DNA of 64,000 nucleotides from a virus (Duplodnaviria > Caudoviricetes). Positions 4,195 to 51,986 of this stretch are shown here, in pieces. The notes under the pieces were generated by a model. The model saw only the letters and a program-made list of their open reading frames with translations, made no database searches and was not told where the DNA came from. Positions within the stretch are counted from its first letter, which is position 1. Every line of letters begins with the position of its first letter. The stretch spans positions 20,315 through 84,314 of the IMG/VR virus record IMGVR_UViG_3300033074_001499; one strand, given 5' to 3'. The position numbers were made by a program, and so were the translations under genes.

Positions 4195-5157
4195 TCAGCC
4201 TCGCTTTACATTGTTCGGAATGATTTGCCGATGTTGAATCCAACCCATGAAATTACCAGACCAGATTTTTTGATCTTGATCCATGTGCGTAGTTCCTTCT
4301 TGACAGAGTGCTTCCCAAATTGCATCAGTCCAGTAATCACATTCTGGAATTTTCATTGGTGTGGCTTGGTGCTCGAAAGGACTTGCATGAACAGGTTCAC
4401 TTTCTACCAGTTTTTTATAAATTATTTGAGCTTTTTCAAGACTATCATCCAAGGCACGATATGAAACTTGAGCACAGCAGCTAGCACTGGTAGCAAGAGC
4501 ATCTTTCAGTTTTACCCCATCAAAATCTTCACGGTCTTCTTTTTCCACAAGCCAACTGTGAGTTGCATATTTTTCAGAGTGACTATCATCTTTCCAATAG
4601 CCATCTGCGTAATAAGGTGTGTGCCAATCCCCAGGATTCAGAATAACAGGTTCACTATTTTCTTTAGCTTCAAGCATCACTTCAGCAAGACGTTTAATTT
4701 CTGGTTGAGCATCTTCATGATTGCGAAGCCAGAAGAAGTTTTCAAACTCTGTGCCTGTTAGAACGGTTTTCATCCATTGATATGGCTCAAGAATACGATT
4801 GACCACTTGCTTGTGCAGTCCAGCGGAAGCCATTGATTCAGCATACTCACTTGCAGCAATAGCTGCTTGATGCCAAAGCTCATCAACGTACATAGCATCA
4901 ACACTATTCAACTCTTCTTTAGCTTGCATCCCAGGTTGATTTTTACCCCAGTGAACAGGCATTGCTGGATCATTCCGTACTTGTTCAATCATTTTACCAA
5001 TTGGGATAGCACGACTACTTGCAGCATTACGGCTGAACATCCGATGCGTCATTAGTTCTGAGTGAATAAACCGAGGATACTGAAGTTCAAACGTAATAAT
5101 CTCTTTGCCATTAACACTTGATTTGGAATGAGCAATAATTTTAGCGCTAATTTCCAT
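4195..5157 (-). CDS. thyX: FAD-dependent thymidylate synthase ThyX (Thy1)
   Basis: RFIHSELMTHRMFSRNAASSRAIP ThyX motif; HASPFEHQA. Confidence 0.92.
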   Translation of the reverse strand: MEISAKIIAHSKSSVNGKEIITFELQYPRFIHSELMTHRMFSRNAASSRAIPIGKMIEQVRNDPAMPVHWGKNQPGMQAKEELNSVDAMYVDELWHQAAIAASEYAESMASAGLHKQVVNRILEPYQWMKTVLTGTEFENFFWLRNHEDAQPEIKRLAEVMLEAKENSEPVILNPGDWHTPYYADGYWKDDSHSEKYATHSWLVEKEDREDFDGVKLKDALATSASCCAQVSYRALDDSLEKAQIIYKKLVESEPVHASPFEHQATPMKIPECDYWTDAIWEALCQEGTTHMDQDQKIWSGNFMGWIQHRQIIPNNVKRG

Positions 5158-5384
5158 TAGACATATTCCTCCAGCTTACCAACACCACGAATAATCTTCA
5201 CTTCATCTCCTTCATAAATCAGAGTAGTTGGAAGAGATTTAATATTGTTCTCCATACAAAATTCCATGTTTTCATCAGCATCAATTACTTGATAAATCAC
5301 TCCATTTCGAGTGAGCATATCTTTGAGGACCCCACATTGTTTACACCAACTACTGCTTACAACTTTAATTGTACGATTTGACAT
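5157..5384 (-). CDS. Thioredoxin/glutaredoxin-like protein
   Basis: SSSWCKQC (CxxC), IKSLPT cis-Pro motif; next to RNR genes. Confidence 0.88.
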   Translation of the reverse strand: MSNRTIKVVSSSWCKQCGVLKDMLTRNGVIYQVIDADENMEFCMENNIKSLPTTLIYEGDEVKIIRGVGKLEEYV

Positions 5385-5529
5385 ATTCCTTTTCTCCTTC
5401 TTCTCTTTGTAATTCTTTTAGACATTCTTCCCAGGAAAGCGGGATATTAGGATGAAACTCAAACATCATACCACTTTCTTTCAAAGCTTTATAGTCTTTT
5501 TCTGTTTTAATATAGTCTTGCCATTTCAT
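5365..5529 (-). CDS. Small hypothetical protein (54 aa)
   Basis: Hand-translated MKWQDYIKTEKDYKALKESGMMFEFHP...; fills the gap. Confidence 0.6.
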   Translation of the reverse strand: MKWQDYIKTEKDYKALKESGMMFEFHPNIPLSWEECLKELQREEGEKEYVKSYN

Positions 5530-5531
5530 GA

Positions 5532-5591
5532 TTATGGGATAAATTCACTCAAATCTACTTTAGGATGATTGACGGGTTTTGCTATCTTGCC
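5532..5591 (-). pseudogene. Orphan 3' end of the dNTP pyrophosphatase gene displaced by HNH insertion
   Basis: Translates GKIAKPVNHPKVDLSEFIP*, 15/19 identical to the C-terminus of 6266..6754. Confidence 0.85.
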
Positions 5592-5592
5592 A

Positions 5593-6261
5593 TCAAACAT
5601 TGAAACCATATACCTCTACCTCCTTTTCTTTTCTAACCTCAGCAGCTTTATCAAAATCTTCAAAATATCCAGTGTAAACCCTCTTATTATACTTATTAAT
5701 ATAAGCACACCACTTATTCATAGCCTTGGACCAATAAACTCCAGTAACCCCCGATGTGTTTTTACTAGATGTTTTCCTATTATACGACTGAATTGTCCTG
5801 TCTGCCCACCTACAATTTTCTGGAAAATAACCAAGATTCGGGTCAATTCTGTCTAAAGAAGTTCCCTCAGGACGTTCTCCCATGTCAGCAAAGAAATTTT
5901 CGAAAAGAATCCATTCTTTACAAACTTCAATATTGCCATAATATAGTTTTTCACGTTCTGTTGGATTTAGGCATCTATGTAACATTGATTTCCAACTTTG
6001 CCAAGTGGGTGTTTCTGACATTCCGTGATTCTGTCTAGGAAGGCCGGTAATTGTTTGATAGATGCAACCACAAGATTTCGTGTGACCGTTCATCAGATTT
6101 GCAGAGTCGCAATCAAACACATTTCCACAAAAACATTCTACGACGAATCTTTTTCTACCATATTTCTTTTCAGGAGAGGTCTTTTTAAAATAAATATTTT
6201 TTATTTTAAGGTCATTGTAAACGTCCCCCTCTTTTAGTTGTGGATAGTTTATTTTCGGCAT
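5593..6261 (-). CDS. HNH homing endonuclease with AP2-like C-terminal domain
   Basis: GHTKSCGC, SLDRIDPN..Y.PENCRWA, NTSGVTGVYW..KW.AYI. Confidence 0.88.
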   Translation of the reverse strand: MPKINYPQLKEGDVYNDLKIKNIYFKKTSPEKKYGRKRFVVECFCGNVFDCDSANLMNGHTKSCGCIYQTITGLPRQNHGMSETPTWQSWKSMLHRCLNPTEREKLYYGNIEVCKEWILFENFFADMGERPEGTSLDRIDPNLGYFPENCRWADRTIQSYNRKTSSKNTSGVTGVYWSKAMNKWCAYINKYNKRVYTGYFEDFDKAAEVRKEKEVEVYGFNV

Positions 6262-6265
6262 ATTT

Positions 6266-6754
6266 TCAACCCCTCGGTATCATTTTTGAAAGATCAACTT
6301 TTGGAAAATCTACAGGCTTTGCGATTTTTCCAGAAAGAAGTCTAACCGAGTAGAAGGGAAGACCATTCAAAATAGAAGTTTCGATAGTGTATTCCATATC
6401 ATCTCGATTTTCTAGTTTTTCTTTTTCTTCTACAGCCTGATAATAACTATCAAACACTTTCTTTTCATTGTTATCAATGATTGCTTGCATTGCTCCAGAA
6501 ACATCAAATCCTGCTTTGTCTAGAATATCCATAAACTTAGACAAAATAATAAAAGTGTCCACAACGCCATCGATCAGTTCAACAGGATCACCATAATCCG
6601 ATGCTTCAACAGTTTCAGAAGCTTCTTCTACCAGTAATTTAGCTTGAAGAGTGACAGCCTGCCACCACTCTTGCGTATCATAAACACAATCCTTTACACC
6701 AGCTTTAGTGTTCCAATCATTAATTGCTTTGTAGAATTTTACGAGGTCTTTCAC
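6266..6754 (-). CDS. MazG/PRA-PH-like nucleoside triphosphate pyrophosphohydrolase
   Basis: LLVEEASET...ELIDGVVDT all-alpha NTP-PPase motif. Confidence 0.8.
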   Translation of the reverse strand: MKDLVKFYKAINDWNTKAGVKDCVYDTQEWWQAVTLQAKLLVEEASETVEASDYGDPVELIDGVVDTFIILSKFMDILDKAGFDVSGAMQAIIDNNEKKVFDSYYQAVEEKEKLENRDDMEYTIETSILNGLPFYSVRLLSGKIAKPVDFPKVDLSKMIPRG

Positions 6755-6766
6755 TTTTTCTCCTTA

Positions 6767-7303
6767 CTAATAATAAACACAGATTTCTTTTACAATTCGT
6801 TCATCCCACACACTAAACTGATGCATTACAGCACACTCATCAGATTGCGTGTAGGGAGTATTATACAGCACTCTTTTCTGAGGTTCAAACCCTTTCAACA
6901 CATCAAGCCTGTCATCAATCATGCATTCTACAGCTTTATTCATCACATGTTTTTTATGACAAGCAACATATTCATGCATGAAAGGGAAATGTTCTTTCAA
7001 CCAATAATATTTACTTTTTGTGTGATTACCTTTGATTCTTGAAATGAAAACAATTTGGAAATGTTTAGACAATTCTTTAAGGCATTCCACGCTCCCTTCG
7101 ATAGGTTGAAATTGAGAGTAATCAAGTTCTCGCCAATATTCATAGGGATCGTCAACACCAGCAAATTGTGTTCCAAGATTATAAGGAGGTGATTCGTAAT
7201 CTCCGAGAGGATATTCAACAGAACACCTCTTTTTGAGCCATTTCCTCCAACCTCTGTCAGAAGGACATACTGTCAGATCAACATCCACACCGATGATTCT
7301 CAT
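6767..7303 (-). CDS. 5'(3')-deoxyribonucleotidase (HAD, NT5C-like)
   Basis: MRIIGVDVDLT (DxD), MIDDR; true start 7303 with AGGAG RBS, not 7420. Confidence 0.85.
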   Translation of the reverse strand: MRIIGVDVDLTVCPSDRGWRKWLKKRCSVEYPLGDYESPPYNLGTQFAGVDDPYEYWRELDYSQFQPIEGSVECLKELSKHFQIVFISRIKGNHTKSKYYWLKEHFPFMHEYVACHKKHVMNKAVECMIDDRLDVLKGFEPQKRVLYNTPYTQSDECAVMHQFSVWDERIVKEICVYY

Positions 7304-7319
7304 TTTATTTATTCTCCTA

Positions 7320-7979
7320 TTAAGGTTTTTCTTTATATTGCAATTCAAGAATGAGTTCAAGATAATGAATAGCTTTTTTAATGTCCCCTGCTCCGTTTTT
7401 ATCTTTATGACGAGTGACATATTTCACGACATTACCCTGAAAATAATCCAAATTGTTTGCATGAATGTATTCAATAGGTTGAATCTTGCAACCTTTATAA
7501 TGCGTACCACTGATTTGTTTATCTAGAGCAGAACCTGAAACAATATCTACAATTTCTTTTGTTTGTTCAGTGTTGCGCAATGCGTCATATGTTTTTAACA
7601 CTTCAAACCGATTCTTACTCACTTTGCAATTGATAATGCTATCCGTAAGAAGCTCTCTCACTTGATAAACATATCCCCATTCTCCCTCATCCTCAAAAAG
7701 CACTTCGTATGCATAGCCAGGAATTAGTTTCCTGAATCCAACAGCGTTGTCGGAAAGTTTTACAAATTTCTGGGATTTGGGTTTGAATACTTCTTGAAGG
7801 GCTGGAGTTTCTACCCACCAGCGTTCTCTTTTATTACTCACAGAGCTTAGTTCATAAGAGCCATCTTCCGCATCACAAGCTTTGAGTAGACCGATTGTTC
7901 CAACCTCAAAATAGTGTTCCCCTAACTGTTCCTTATCATTATTTTGTCCAACAACTCTAAAATAGCGTTCTTCACTCAT
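7320..7979 (-). CDS. DUF3310-domain protein
   Basis: C-terminal QISGTHY..IQPIEYI...F.QGNVVKYVTR..KNG..DIKKAIHYL. Confidence 0.8.
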   Translation of the reverse strand: MSEERYFRVVGQNNDKEQLGEHYFEVGTIGLLKACDAEDGSYELSSVSNKRERWWVETPALQEVFKPKSQKFVKLSDNAVGFRKLIPGYAYEVLFEDEGEWGYVYQVRELLTDSIINCKVSKNRFEVLKTYDALRNTEQTKEIVDIVSGSALDKQISGTHYKGCKIQPIEYIHANNLDYFQGNVVKYVTRHKDKNGAGDIKKAIHYLELILELQYKEKP

Positions 7980-26931: not shown

Positions 26932-27168
26932 ATGCTTCATAGAAATTCAAAATTGCTTTACAGCTATTTCTATGAATTGGCTGTAACTATTGTAAATGCA
27001 GACAGTGAATACATGATTGGATATACGTATGGGAAAGCATCTACATCAGCTTCATGGGCTAATTTTAAAACAAAAGAAATTTCAGAAAAAGAATTTTATA
27101 ATTATAATAAATTTATAGCTCAAATTCATGATATACGATTGAAAGAACTTGGTTATGAACTTGATTGA
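26932..27168 (+). CDS. Hypothetical protein
   Basis: GGAG RBS. Confidence 0.65.
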   Translation: MLHRNSKLLYSYFYELAVTIVNADSEYMIGYTYGKASTSASWANFKTKEISEKEFYNYNKFIAQIHDIRLKELGYELD

Positions 27169-27517
27169 TTATTGTATTGAAAAAGCAAAAGAAATCCCAT
27201 ATGTGAAAGGACAATACAGACTCTATTCTGTGATTACAGATAAGAGAGGAAGAATTGTATCTGAGAGTGCGAATTCTTATTGCACTACGCACCCTAAGCA
27301 ATTCTATGCAGCTAAGAGAGTAGGGAAGCCTCTGAAACAATTCCTCCACGCAGAGTCGAGTGCGCTAATTAAAAGCAAAGGAAGGGGTTGTAAACTTTAC
27401 GTTGCTCGTGTATTGTCAGATGGAACACCAGCAGATGCGATGCCTTGCCTTGTTTGCCAGATGATGGTAAAATTGCATGGTGGAATTAAATCTATAGAGT
27501 ATACAACAGGAGAATAA
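27155..27517 (+). CDS. Zinc-dependent cytidine/adenosine deaminase-fold protein
   Basis: HAE (FLHAESSAL) and PCxxC (MPCLVCQ). Confidence 0.82.
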   Translation: MNLIDYCIEKAKEIPYVKGQYRLYSVITDKRGRIVSESANSYCTTHPKQFYAAKRVGKPLKQFLHAESSALIKSKGRGCKLYVARVLSDGTPADAMPCLVCQMMVKLHGGIKSIEYTTGE

Positions 27518-48391: not shown

Positions 48392-49504
48392 TTATTCCTT
48401 AATAAATCCATAGTGAGTTAACTCAGCCTCTTCTCTCACAAACACAGCAAGTTCAAAATCTGTAGTAACAAAAATCCTTTTCTTTTTAATGCGCACATCC
48501 CAAACACCCGGTTTAATTTGATATACGCCAGTCCTTCCTGATTTATTTGTAACTCTTTTATTTTGATTAAACGCTTGGGTTACCCTGTCTGCCCAACAAC
48601 AATTTTCTTTGCAGTAATTACCATTCGGGTCTTTTCTTTCAAGAGTATATTCTGATGAAGGTTTAGGTCCCATATCAGCATAGAAAGCCATAAAATCTTC
48701 TTCCCACTCTTTGCTCATAGATATTCCTCTTCCGCCATATCTATCATATGAGCCTGAATTAGAATTTTTTACTCGCGTTTTAGCGGCCTGCCAAGAAATA
48801 TATTCGGGTGTTCCTGTCATCTCATGTTTTAAGTTTCTCTCAGCCGAGTTTTCGGCGTGGAAACAACCACAACTTTGAGTATGTCCTGTGGACAATTCAT
48901 TGTAGGATGTTTCAACAACATTACCGCAATCACATTTGCATACCCATCGGATTCTAGAGTCCCCATGTTTATCTTTGATTCTTTTCTTGTCTACAACGAG
49001 AAGTCTATTGAATTTTTGACCAAAAATATTATTACTTTCAGCGTAAACCCATTCTAGATTTTCAGCTTTATTGTTATTCTTATCTCCATCCTTGTGTATG
49101 ACGTAGGGCTTATTTTCAGGATTTGGAATAAACTTTTCTGCAACCAGCCTGTGAAGTTTAGATGTTTTACCAATCATCCCACATTTCACCATCAAAAATC
49201 CTTGAGCATCTGGCACAGCTTTTAATTCTTTACCCCAACGCATGCTTAAGATTGAACCTTGGTCTGAAATACAATACTTCTTCTCTTCGTCCAACCACTC
49301 CCAATTACCAGAAGGTAACTTAATATTTTTATTGTAGCAAGTTTCACAGTGGAAAGATTTTGATGCTCCTTTCAAAACAATAGGAATTTGTCTCTTATCT
49401 ATATCAAAAGATTTACCGCAATCGCAGTGACCCTCTACACGGTATTTTCTTCCCCTGAGATATTTTCTTGAAACTGTCAACCATTGAAATTTTTCCTCAT
49501 TCAT
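48392..49504 (-). CDS. Tandem two-nuclease-domain HNH homing endonuclease
   Basis: HRLVAEKFIPNP..KPYVIHKDGDKNNN..NLEW plus second LERKDPNGNYCKENCCWA domain. Confidence 0.85.
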   Translation of the reverse strand: MNEEKFQWLTVSRKYLRGRKYRVEGHCDCGKSFDIDKRQIPIVLKGASKSFHCETCYNKNIKLPSGNWEWLDEEKKYCISDQGSILSMRWGKELKAVPDAQGFLMVKCGMIGKTSKLHRLVAEKFIPNPENKPYVIHKDGDKNNNKAENLEWVYAESNNIFGQKFNRLLVVDKKRIKDKHGDSRIRWVCKCDCGNVVETSYNELSTGHTQSCGCFHAENSAERNLKHEMTGTPEYISWQAAKTRVKNSNSGSYDRYGGRGISMSKEWEEDFMAFYADMGPKPSSEYTLERKDPNGNYCKENCCWADRVTQAFNQNKRVTNKSGRTGVYQIKPGVWDVRIKKKRIFVTTDFELAVFVREEAELTHYGFIKE

Positions 49505-49658: not shown

Positions 49659-49967
49659 TTATAGCACAGGAATAGGGAATGGAGCAAAACTAACAAAATC
49701 TTCTGAATACCCTTCTTCAATTTTGTAGCGAATGTAATAGGATTCTAGACGATTCTCTTTTGGTTTGCAAGAAAATTGTGCATAAATGAAATCTCCAATC
49801 TTCACAGCAGCAAGAGAACGAGATGTTTCCCAATTACGAGTAATATAACAGAAACCAGCTTTGTCCAGATTTTGATCTAAAATACGATTGAATTTATTTG
49901 GCGAAATAACATGTTTGTATTGATGATTTTTATTCTTACGTTTCATTGATTTTCCTCCATTACTCAT
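49659..49967 (-). CDS. Hypothetical protein
   Basis: ORF track. Confidence 0.65.
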   Translation of the reverse strand: MSNGGKSMKRKNKNHQYKHVISPNKFNRILDQNLDKAGFCYITRNWETSRSLAAVKIGDFIYAQFSCKPKENRLESYYIRYKIEEGYSEDFVSFAPFPIPVL

Positions 49968-51262
49968 CGGTCGTTCTCCCGAGGAAATGACTTACACGGA
50001 CCGAAGAGCCCGCAGACAGCACAGGTACGCGGATAGGGCTTTCCCTCAGCCATGAGCACGCGCTGACACGTTTTGCCCACAAACTCAACTGTGTGCGGTT
50101 GCTGGACAGTCTGCTGCTGTTCGGATGCAGGCGGGACTGGTGCGATCAACACTTTATCTTCATCAGAGAGCAGCGGGCCAATGCATCGCCAGCCGTGCAT
50201 CTTGACGGACTGCAAGCTGCCGATCTTCAGAGGGCCTGGCTGCCCCACTTCGAAATCGACAGGTGAAGAGCCGTCGGCATTCTTGCCGATGAAAACGCAG
50301 TGCTGAATGTCGATTCTTGGGACGGCCAGTTCGTTGGTGCGCGAGACTGTTTTTAGCATTGCAGCTACTCGATCCCGCATCGACTCACCGTTGACCACAA
50401 CGCAGTTCATCCCGCAGCGCAGAAGGTCAGATAGAAGCTCTTCCAGCCCATGCGGCACCCCAGCAGCAGGCGGGGCTGCAGTTGCGTGATCGGCAAACGT
50501 CATAGGCATGCCGAGTGACACGGCGATGCTGCGCTCTAGCAGGGCGCCTTTGCTTTTTTCCCAACCAGGCAGGAAGTGGACGGATTCGCACCGCGAGAGT
50601 TGAGCGATGTCATAACGCAAGTAATCGCACCACCCTGCGCCATCTACGATGCCATGATCTGCGGGATTGACTACATCAAAGCCAACGCTACGAAGCCGTG
50701 CAGCCTCTGCATTAAATGCAGGAAAATTGAACTCAGCGTATCCAGTCATTGGGCCCGCCAGATAAACGCGATTGCGACGGCTATCTGCAAGTTGAATCTG
50801 TTGTGCAGCAGCAGGCGGGGCGGAGAGCGCGGCGTCACGCTCTTGCTCGGCCGTGGCACACGCAACAGCAACTTCGTGCAGGCGGCTATTAGCGCAGGAG
50901 ACTTCAGTGCGCAGGCCGGCCACGATGCGCTGATGCTGGGCGACGGTCATCAGGGGTTCACTGCAGCACACATCCTGGGCTGCCTTCACTACGCAGGATG
51001 TGTGGCCGTGGCGACGCATGAGGTTCAGATCGCTGGGGTCAGCCCACGCCACCACCTCCACCTCTTCCCCATCCACGATATGGGCAGGGGATTTGAATAG
51101 TGGATCAGAATCAATAAAAACTTCATCAGGAATATTTTCCCAATTTCGTCGTAGAACCTCAAACTCACCTTCATTCCATAGATTCAGAAACAAAATTGAA
51201 TCAGAGTCATCATCACATTTCTCAAGTGCATATTTAATTGCTGCTACTGCTGAATCATTCAT
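49964..51262 (-). CDS. Mosaic protein with DUF4406 (nucleoside deoxyribosyltransferase-like) domain, GC-rich
   Basis: RVYLAGPMTG...NFPAFN.EA...NPA...DI..L..C....LPGWEKSKGA.LE; start 51262 (AAGGAG RBS). Confidence 0.82.
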   Translation of the reverse strand: MNDSAVAAIKYALEKCDDDSDSILFLNLWNEGEFEVLRRNWENIPDEVFIDSDPLFKSPAHIVDGEEVEVVAWADPSDLNLMRRHGHTSCVVKAAQDVCCSEPLMTVAQHQRIVAGLRTEVSCANSRLHEVAVACATAEQERDAALSAPPAAAQQIQLADSRRNRVYLAGPMTGYAEFNFPAFNAEAARLRSVGFDVVNPADHGIVDGAGWCDYLRYDIAQLSRCESVHFLPGWEKSKGALLERSIAVSLGMPMTFADHATAAPPAAGVPHGLEELLSDLLRCGMNCVVVNGESMRDRVAAMLKTVSRTNELAVPRIDIQHCVFIGKNADGSSPVDFEVGQPGPLKIGSLQSVKMHGWRCIGPLLSDEDKVLIAPVPPASEQQQTVQQPHTVEFVGKTCQRVLMAEGKPYPRTCAVCGLFGPCKSFPRENDR

Positions 51263-51986
51263 TTGTAATCTCCTTTTTACATTGTTTCGGGATAAGATCA
51301 TATTTCTTTTTAATTTCAGCTACACCTTTCTTGATTCCATTTTGCACAGCTTGTTCGATTTCGTCAAGCAGATTAAATTGTTCTTCTGGTTCTTCATTCT
51401 CTTCTTGGCTACTTTCAACCAAAGCTTGTCGATAATCATACATTTTCTCAAGACGTTCTGCAAGCTGGTCAGCATCAAAATAAAACGGAGTGCCTTTGAT
51501 AACGTCCTCCAGATCATCTTGACTCAGGAAACCACTATACACATCTTCATACAATTTACGAAGCTGTTTTCGTGAGAAATTGGCATGTTCATAAATATCT
51601 GTATCTTTTGCCATCAAACCATATGTGCTCGTGTGGATCATCAGATTTGATGTGTCATCTAGGACATGTTCCCGACACGACAAAGCAAGAATACTGCCAG
51701 CAGAGCTACAAGCAGGTCCAATAATTGCTACAGTGTGGGCGGGAGTATTGAACAATGCACGTTTAAAAAGCATTGCCGTATCTAGCACACCACCATCTGT
51801 ACAAATATCAAGCACAATTGTGTCCATTTCCGATGCAGTATTAATCAAATTCAGTTCATCAAGATAATCCCCAGGATTACCAATATCTTCATAAATCTGA
51901 ATAACATGCGTATTTGCTACTGTTTGATTAGTTGAAATACGTGATGGTTTTTGCATCAGGGGAATTAGGTTATCATCATTTCGCAT
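51255..51986 (-). CDS. ClpP-family serine protease
   Basis: ICTDGG, ACSAGS (Ser), LMIH (His). Confidence 0.85.
   Translation of the reverse strand: MRNDDNLIPLMQKPSRISTNQTVANTHVIQIYEDIGNPGDYLDELNLINTASEMDTIVLDICTDGGVLDTAMLFKRALFNTPAHTVAIIGPACSSAGSILALSCREHVLDDTSNLMIHTSTYGLMAKDTDIYEHANFSRKQLRKLYEDVYSGFLSQDDLEDVIKGTPFYFDADQLAERLEKMYDYRQALVESSQEENEEPEEQFNLLDEIEQAVQNGIKKGVAEIKKKYDLIPKQCKKEITNE

Follow-up and report, generated by a model that had tools for sequence, protein, structure and literature searches.

Hybrid genes made up of a gene core, an inserted foreign C-terminus, an endonuclease open reading frame (ORF), and the native C-terminus are known from fungal mitochondria. These mORF gene hybrids have been described for atp6, atp9, cox2, and nad3 of Glomus (PMC3630166). 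The same paper also cites an atp6 mORF hybrid of Allomyces macrogynus (Paquin et al. 1994) and mentions that the Allomyces endonuclease has been reported to drive mobility of the element. The same arrangement is present in the DNA analysed here, a stretch of 64,000 nucleotides (nt) referred to as the window, which constitutes the last 64 kb of the 84,314-nt virus record IMGVR_UViG_3300033074_001499 (IMG/VR; Duplodnaviria, Caudoviricetes). In the window, an HNH-AP2 endonuclease gene separates a gene for a MazG-like pyrophosphohydrolase from an orphan copy of that gene's tail. A real gene-end-replacement homing cassette at this locus, a phage HNH-AP2 variant of the phenomenon known from mitochondria, is well supported. 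Very probably, a composite mobile cassette, in which about 25 foreign codons of MazG are followed by a 4-nt spacer and the HNH-AP2 gene, was inserted between MazG codons 139 and 140 and spreads by homing along the route outlined below.

Compared with an element-less relative, the mitochondrial hybrids show 91-98% identity in their native end and 64-81% in the inserted one (PMC3630166); the corresponding values here are about 97% and 63%. The differences concern the setting and the enzyme, mitochondrial DNA with LAGLIDADG or GIY-YIG endonucleases versus a phage genome with HNH-AP2, and also the architecture. The fungal reading frames are fused in frame, whereas the phage endonuclease is a separate cistron whose predicted ribosome-binding site lies in the carried tail, and for the phage system a mirror-image version at the 5' end of the same gene was found as well (locus L006, see below).

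Free-standing endonucleases of the T4 type, such as SegF, SegG, SegB, and MobE, share with the window locus their position next to or within a conserved gene, presence/absence polymorphism, co-conversion of flanking DNA, and double-strand-break repair including one-sided illegitimate repair (PMC2988022). They are, however, intergenic or split a gene into two working polypeptides, as mobE does in nrdA and mobA in the topoisomerase gene (PMC2988022). T4 mobA together with the 50-nt bypass element of gene 60 has been termed a 'mobile DNA cassette' (Bonocora et al. 2011, as cited in PMC8300805; bioRxiv 10.1101/2022.08.31.505936). There, too, an endonuclease travels with extra sequence inside its target gene, but the passenger is a translational-bypass insert and not a recoded duplicate gene end. 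The phage HNH-AP2 enzymes called 'IPA-HNH' (Barth et al. 2023, PMC10448857; Magnani et al. 2004 cited there) have the same domain order, an atypical HNH missed by Pfam HNH_3 and a C-terminal AP2. They are likewise free-standing, located near genes of nucleotide metabolism or replication, and mark boundaries of genetic exchange. Term searches in PMC2988022 and PMC10448857 returned no mention of carried duplicate gene ends. In the full-text literature, which was covered partially and thus provides no proof, gene-end duplication by endonuclease ORFs was found for mitochondria and chloroplasts only, with no description from a phage.

The elements of the locus are listed below with the basis of each assignment. 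L004 is a sibling contig without the endonuclease.

6266..6754, minus strand: gene for a MazG-like nucleoside triphosphate pyrophosphohydrolase, 162 amino acids, a hybrid of native body and foreign tail (ORF, PHROG, Pfam)
6345..6388, minus strand: predicted left crossover zone, 44 nt identical to L004 before identity collapses (pairwise alignment)
6266..6344, minus strand: foreign replacement tail, codons 138-162 (RLLSGKIAKPVDFPKVDLSKMIPRG) and stop (L004 alignment)
5598..6344, minus strand: foreign tract of 747 bp, replacement tail plus 4-nt spacer plus endonuclease gene (L004 homology break points)
5593..6261, minus strand: free-standing gene for a predicted HNH-AP2 homing endonuclease, 222 amino acids, intact (phrog_374, AP2 domain, structure match)
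5532..5597, minus strand: orphan native MazG tail, codons 140-160 and stop (FDGKIAKPVNHPKVDLSEFIP) (L004 alignment)

An earlier sequence-only reading had reported that the stretch behind the endonuclease stop encodes a near-copy of the MazG tail in recoded form, and both observations hold. The minus-strand translation of positions 5529-5600 is MFDGKIAKPVNHPKVDLSEFIP followed by a stop, and the 162-amino-acid MazG protein ends with FYSVRLLSGKIAKPVDFPKVDLSKMIPRG. From G142 on, 15 of 19 residues are identical, while nucleotide identity is just 36/57; of the 15 shared residues, 12 are encoded by a different codon in the two copies, for instance CTT versus TTG (Leu) and TCA versus AGT (Ser). Similarity of this kind was compared to a null set of 400 mismatched flank pairs drawn from 80 endonuclease loci and scored with BLOSUM62. 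The flank-to-flank score of the window locus is 88, and the null pairs have a mean of 28 and a maximum of 51. Since the score exceeds the null set and the orphan side is 94.6% identical to the real MazG end of a relative, the similarity is not due to chance. The recoding of 12 of 15 conserved residues indicates that the copies diverged as coding sequence in separate lineages and did not arise by local duplication. The foreign tail is in frame and keeps the family pattern G-K-[IV]-x-K-P-[VI]-[DN]-F ... V-D-L ... P.

Which of the two ends is native became apparent from the sibling contigs L004 and L005. The first 137 residues of their MazG proteins are 96% identical to those of the window, and no endonuclease is present at the site. 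As anticipated by the sequence-only reading, these endonuclease-less relatives carry the orphan-type tail: both MazG proteins end with KRFDGKIAKPVNHPKVDLSEFIP, the same amino acid sequence as the orphan, and their genes are joined directly to the same 54-amino-acid gene with the same TAATCATG overlap. The ...SKMIPRG end of the window MazG, which in endonuclease-less relatives would have spoken against that reading, is carried by none of them. In 30-nt windows, the DNA of L004 mostly agrees with that of the window at about 83-100% as far as MazG nt 410. Positions 367-410 form an identical 44-nt run, the first foreign-type difference is at nt 411, and over the last 79 nt of MazG identity is only 60-70%. 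At the protein level, the MazG tail is 65% and the body 96% identical to L004. On the orphan side, positions 5597-5154 are 94.6% identical in DNA to the L004 MazG 3' end and downstream genes, and the orphan itself differs from the functional L004 tail at two sites only, both synonymous. From the drop in identity after nt 410 and the near-identity of the orphan to L004 it follows that the orphan is the native end and the functional tail a foreign one, and the earlier claims that the element supplied a recoded 3' end and displaced the original are supported. Intronless homing by gene-end replacement, also part of that reading, gains support from the sibling alleles lacking the endonuclease.

A local tandem duplication of the MazG 3' end, followed by divergence and chance landing of an endonuclease between the copies, might be considered, as two copies of 20-odd codons lie about 700 bp apart. 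It was rejected because of the asymmetric divergence: with the orphan two synonymous sites away from the sibling tail and the functional tail only 60-70% identical to it, divergence in situ would have had to substitute about 35% of one copy and leave the other copy and the flanks nearly untouched. We regard this explanation as hardly credible.

Regarding the exact position, the insertion had been placed near codon 142. Its location in the MazG 3' end stands, but the right junction is at codons 139/140. Homology of the orphan to native MazG starts at F140 (TTT, 5597-5595), two codons before G142, and the endonuclease stop codon TGA (5595-5593) falls within the native TTTGATGG. Only seven native bases are missing (CAAACGA, nt 411-417). 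As judged by alignment, the insertion between codons 139 and 140 is effectively clean, and the left crossover is predicted at or before codon 137, within 6388..6345.

Homologues of the endonuclease were searched in 5.8 billion proteins. The four closest, 72, 68, 62, and 54% identical, all stem from other Felix-O1-like (Ounavirinae-like) phages, where each is encoded directly behind a MazG homologue, and these loci share the gene order nucleotidase (NT5C), MazG, endonuclease and, further on, ThyX and ribonucleotide reductase. The layout of tail, endonuclease, and orphan was detected in three of the four lineages, and each orphan matches its own host clade. In L089, L090, and L091, the MazG body resembles that of Pseudomonas phage vB_PsaM_M1 (78-91% amino acid identity) and the tail is RNYYGKISKPVNFKGVDLKPFIPRS; after the endonuclease stop, MFDGKIMK(K/R)VGFVPVSLDEFVP follows, the native tail of the M1 type. 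M1 is a cultured phage without the endonuclease and with the native CGATTTGATGG, and it forms a presence/absence pair with L089, in which the endonuclease is present and the MazG body is 91% identical. A third tail (KTMFGKVSKPVNF...PKG) and a third orphan (ending with QDNKIMKSVDFVPVNLEDYVPKE) were found in L094 and L095. L096 and L097 possess the L089-type tail and an intact orphan, and their endonuclease gene is frameshifted; L096 originates from an unrelated ENA assembly, so that the same cassette type is seen in a third background. In L096 (3001-3800) and L097, the endonuclease product comprises 181 amino acids with the AP2 part in another frame, which looks like a decaying stage.

In all three orphan-bearing lineages, the junctions are at the F140-equivalent codon within a few nucleotides. 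The right junction, AATG joined to TTTGATGG, is the same in the window and in L089. In L096, AATGTTTGA is joined to TTTGATGG, and both copies of the 5-nt microhomology TTTGA are kept. The L094 junction is at the equivalent codon, off by a few nucleotides.

Evidence for recent movement came from the comparison of L089 and L090, which share a block of about 800 bp with 100% identity, which begins about 125 nt ahead of the MazG stop and reaches as far as the stop of the endonuclease gene. Identity of the flanks varies from 45 to 97% in 40-nt windows and decays directly past the block, in the orphan; the MazG bodies are 83% identical and the tails 100%. Such a block looks like the footprint expected from homing with a short left co-conversion tract.

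The same design is present at other genes. When 78 loci with endonuclease relatives were scanned for similarity between upstream and downstream flanks, the window locus ranked third, behind L017 and L006. L017 (2558-3764 of the locus; IMGVR_UViG_3300049050_000056) is located on a sibling contig without the MazG insertion. It contains a deaminase gene with a foreign C-terminal section, followed by a 232-amino-acid HNH-AP2 gene and an orphan of about 53 codons. The window harbors an uninterrupted deaminase gene (27149-27514, plus strand), whose product is 89% identical to the L017 orphan and 64% to the L017 hybrid gene, and DNA identity between the two deaminase genes collapses past nt 147. Taken together, the deaminase and MazG cases make the two sibling phages reciprocal controls. 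L006 (3153-4100; IMGVR_UViG_3300014667_000001) shows the design in mirror image, at the 5' end of MazG: an orphan made up of the first 24 or so MazG codons, 99% identical to L008, in which no insertion is present, is followed by the endonuclease ORF and by MazG with a recoded start. The L006 endonuclease is an HNH-AP2-like ORF stopping inside the AP2 domain. In addition, L087 and L058 (IMG/VR) reached flank scores of 64 and 54, above all 400 null pairs. Judged by these scores, they are likely to be further gene-end duplications in unrelated phages.

The 222-amino-acid protein matches PHROG families annotated as HNH endonuclease (phrog_374, E 3e-58). Its C-terminal 55 residues constitute an AP2 domain (E 1.8e-8 for the family profile versus the solved AP2 of plant WRI1), with structural matches over residues 168-222 to 2gcc (Z 7.2) and 7wq5 (Z 7.0). 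The N-terminal part forms a small beta domain, in which four cysteines are conserved (C43, C45, C64, and C66). The core, residues 77-163 approximately, was modelled with confidence (predicted local distance difference test, pLDDT, 87), including a strand-strand-helix unit at residues 135-160 with a pLDDT of about 90. Whole-protein Foldseek searches against the PDB detected the AP2 domain only, and the match of the nuclease core required an all-against-all structural search with a domain-only model. Its best structural match is PacI (Z 6.0, 81/99 residues, root-mean-square deviation 4.1, 17% sequence identity); the HNH nucleases GVE2, I-HmuI, and Gme are among only 13 chains at Z >= 2, with Z 2.0-2.3. 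R138, Y145 in the loop after the first strand, and N161 are invariant in the family, and N149 is nearly so. PacI (PDB 3m7k/3ldy) belongs to His-Me finger group 20, and a loop Tyr replaces its missing catalytic His (PMC5714182). The window family has in common with PacI the lack of a catalytic His and a Tyr in the inter-strand loop, Y145 being likened by loop position. It differs in that PacI, a restriction enzyme, is dimeric and has no AP2 domain. By its modelled structure, the core is a putative PacI-like His-Me finger, for which nuclease activity is predicted.

Several observations weigh against a cassette that homes as proposed. The first group concerns the enzyme. The canonical catalytic His is absent from the family, D137-R138 closing the first strand, and the match to PacI is modest at Z 6.0. 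Free-standing phage endonucleases are known to cut away from their own insertion site (PMC2988022). The missing His, the Pfam result for the 222-amino-acid protein (no family at E <= 0.01 and no HNH domain, AP2 only at E 0.02), and the frameshifted copy in one relative would fit a fossil, that is, an endonuclease which is inactive or co-opted, for example for AP2-mediated regulation, in a mosaic generated by ordinary phage recombination. On the other hand, the full-length window copy retains all residues that are invariant in the family, Y145, N149, and N161 included, and the best structural match manages with Tyr in the same loop in place of His. Furthermore, the presence of one cassette, 100% identical, in backgrounds that have diverged speaks for very recent movement, and in at least five independent loci the boundaries of the mosaic fall exactly at the endonuclease gene. 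A fossil is therefore considered very improbable.

The second group concerns the history of the cassette. L089 to L091 are Logan metagenome contigs from one study, for which chimeric assembly at shared sequence is possible. The cassette tails of the three lineages are 44-56% alike in amino acids and not closer to each other than the native tails, a comparison of little power with 25 residues. Long-term co-inheritance of tail and endonuclease is apparent, by sequence comparison, only within the L089/L090/L096 group. No donor with the exact ...SKMIPRG tail is among the 76 MazG homologues, the nearest tails being those of P0026, P0041, and P0054. In L092 and L093, the endonuclease is located between MazG and thyX and there is no orphan. 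Finally, four MazG tails lack the native R-x-D motif (P0026, P0041, P0019, and P0021), and an adjacent endonuclease was found for none of the four. The expectation that a tail lacking R-x-D predicts an adjacent endonuclease thus failed. Site variation is not specific to cassette carriers, which weakens the claim of recoding for immunity; these four may be natural resistant alleles or the source of carried tails.

Some of these data could mean that the layout arose separately in each lineage, by a one-sided end-joining copy of a donor endonuclease located after MazG, and that there is no single homing cassette with an orphan arm. L092, with its endonuclease right after MazG, would be the presumed precursor, and the L094 junction, off by a few nucleotides, and the extra TTTGA of L096 point in the same direction, as does one-sided illegitimate repair in T4. 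The junction, however, is the same in window and L089 although their endonucleases are only 72% identical, and the identical L089/L090 cassette ends exactly at the junction, which fits homologous transfer of a ready-made cassette. Separate origins are for these reasons regarded as unlikely.

Transfer of the homing cassette could proceed as follows. During co-infection, the endonuclease would cut endonuclease-less MazG alleles near ...CGA^TTTGATGG..., and the break would be repaired from the cassette-bearing genome, with the MazG body as left arm and the orphan tail and downstream genes as right arm. The cassette would be copied in, turning the recipient's own tail into a new orphan, and the host gene would stay intact through the carried tail, which is in frame, functional, and strongly recoded. 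Around the insertion point, 9 of 24 bases are not the same in the carried tail and the native target, and the orphan contains the right half-site only. Because of these differences, neither copy should be cut again, and both would escape the enzyme; cleavage by the cassette enzyme and immunity to it are both predictions from the sequence. The bypass element accompanying T4 mobA in gene 60 reportedly protects against self-cleavage. The founding event was probably a one-sided, microhomology-mediated repair with a donor in which the endonuclease directly followed MazG. In T4 intron homing, repair of this one-sided, illegitimate type at microhomologies has been documented (PMC2988022).

Putative signals for translation were recognized at both ends of the endonuclease gene.

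6270..6275, minus strand: GAGGGG, Shine-Dalgarno-like, 8 nt before the endonuclease ATG (sequence reading)
5619..5625, minus strand: AAGGAGG within the 3' end of the endonuclease gene, 9 nt ahead of the ATG of the mini-ORF (sequence reading)
5532..5609, minus strand: putative mini-ORF of 25 codons (MVSMFDGK...) through the orphan, ATG at 5609-5607 (translation)

All three cassette tails have two extra C-terminal codons, RG, RS, and KG, which are absent from the native tails of L004 and M1. These codons would form the Shine-Dalgarno sequence of the endonuclease, with equivalents AAGGAG in L089 and AAGGG in L094. The mini-ORF stops 2 nt before the 54-amino-acid gene, which has no obvious ribosome-binding site; the AAGGAGG element is also present in L089. 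Together with the ATG opening the mini-ORF, it may keep translational coupling to the downstream gene. A broader picture can be offered tentatively: long-lived, site-specific lineages of HNH-AP2 cassettes with a PacI-like, tyrosine-type core may routinely invade coding sequence at either gene end with a recoded spare end and without intron or intein, the tail doubling as ribosome-binding site and the orphan mini-ORF preserving coupling. We consider this possible, if somewhat short of an even chance.

In the neighbourhood, all genes from the nucleotidase to the 54-amino-acid gene are on the minus strand, in the order NT5C-like, MazG-like, HNH-AP2 endonuclease, orphan MazG tail, and 54-amino-acid gene. 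The two outer genes are as follows.

7420..6767, minus strand: 5'-nucleotidase-like gene (Pfam NT5C)
5365..5529, minus strand: downstream 54-amino-acid gene (ATG 2 nt past the orphan TAA, as past the intact MazG in L004)

Further downstream on the same strand, a small glutaredoxin/thioredoxin-like gene and a 320-amino-acid ORF resembling ThyX (Thy1) of related loci are present, and a 619-amino-acid ORF with ribonucleotide-reductase-like motifs occupies the position held by ribonucleotide reductase genes in related loci. The MazG-like gene matches phrog_671 (E 6e-16) and phrog_2144 'MazG-like' (E 2e-11). With 20.6 bits it is just below the 21.3 cut-off of Pfam PRA-PH, and its relatives in GenBank are annotated as MazG-like. 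Its homologues vary in size from 141 to 167 amino acids. Megablast of positions 5000-7500 against 50,697 phage records gave no match, and the phage is known only from metagenomes. Its nearest named and cultured relative is M1 (Ounavirinae), with 54% identity in MazG.

Three further observations were made in the window and in L004. In place of the 320-amino-acid ThyX-like gene of the window (4195..5157), L004 (4944-6153) contains a different ThyX of 227 amino acids behind another HNH ORF (179 amino acids), which looks like a gene swap beside a nuclease gene. A 370-amino-acid ORF of the window (48392..49504, minus strand) is an apparent fusion of two endonuclease modules. Its N-terminal part is HNH_3-like by eye, and its C-terminal HNH-AP2 module and the MazG-site endonuclease share 42% identity; in the flank scan, no gene-end duplication was detected for it. 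An island with a GC content of 58% is located at 50000-51000, inside a 445-amino-acid ORF (49964..51301, minus strand) with a low-GC N-terminal part, in a phage of otherwise 34-40% GC. This ORF looks recently acquired or chimeric.

Besides introns and inteins, substitution of a gene end represents a third route by which an endonuclease can enter a phage gene and leave it intact. Such substitution accounts for short orphan fragments of genes and for chimeric gene ends, both a source of confusion in the annotation of phages and in gene phylogenies. For an uncharacterised endonuclease family, a homing site can be predicted at base level, around CGA^TTTGATGG at MazG codons 139/140, and this target is present in vB_PsaM_M1. 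Through such cassettes, pieces of coding sequence are carried between phages that are only about 55% identical in their MazG gene.

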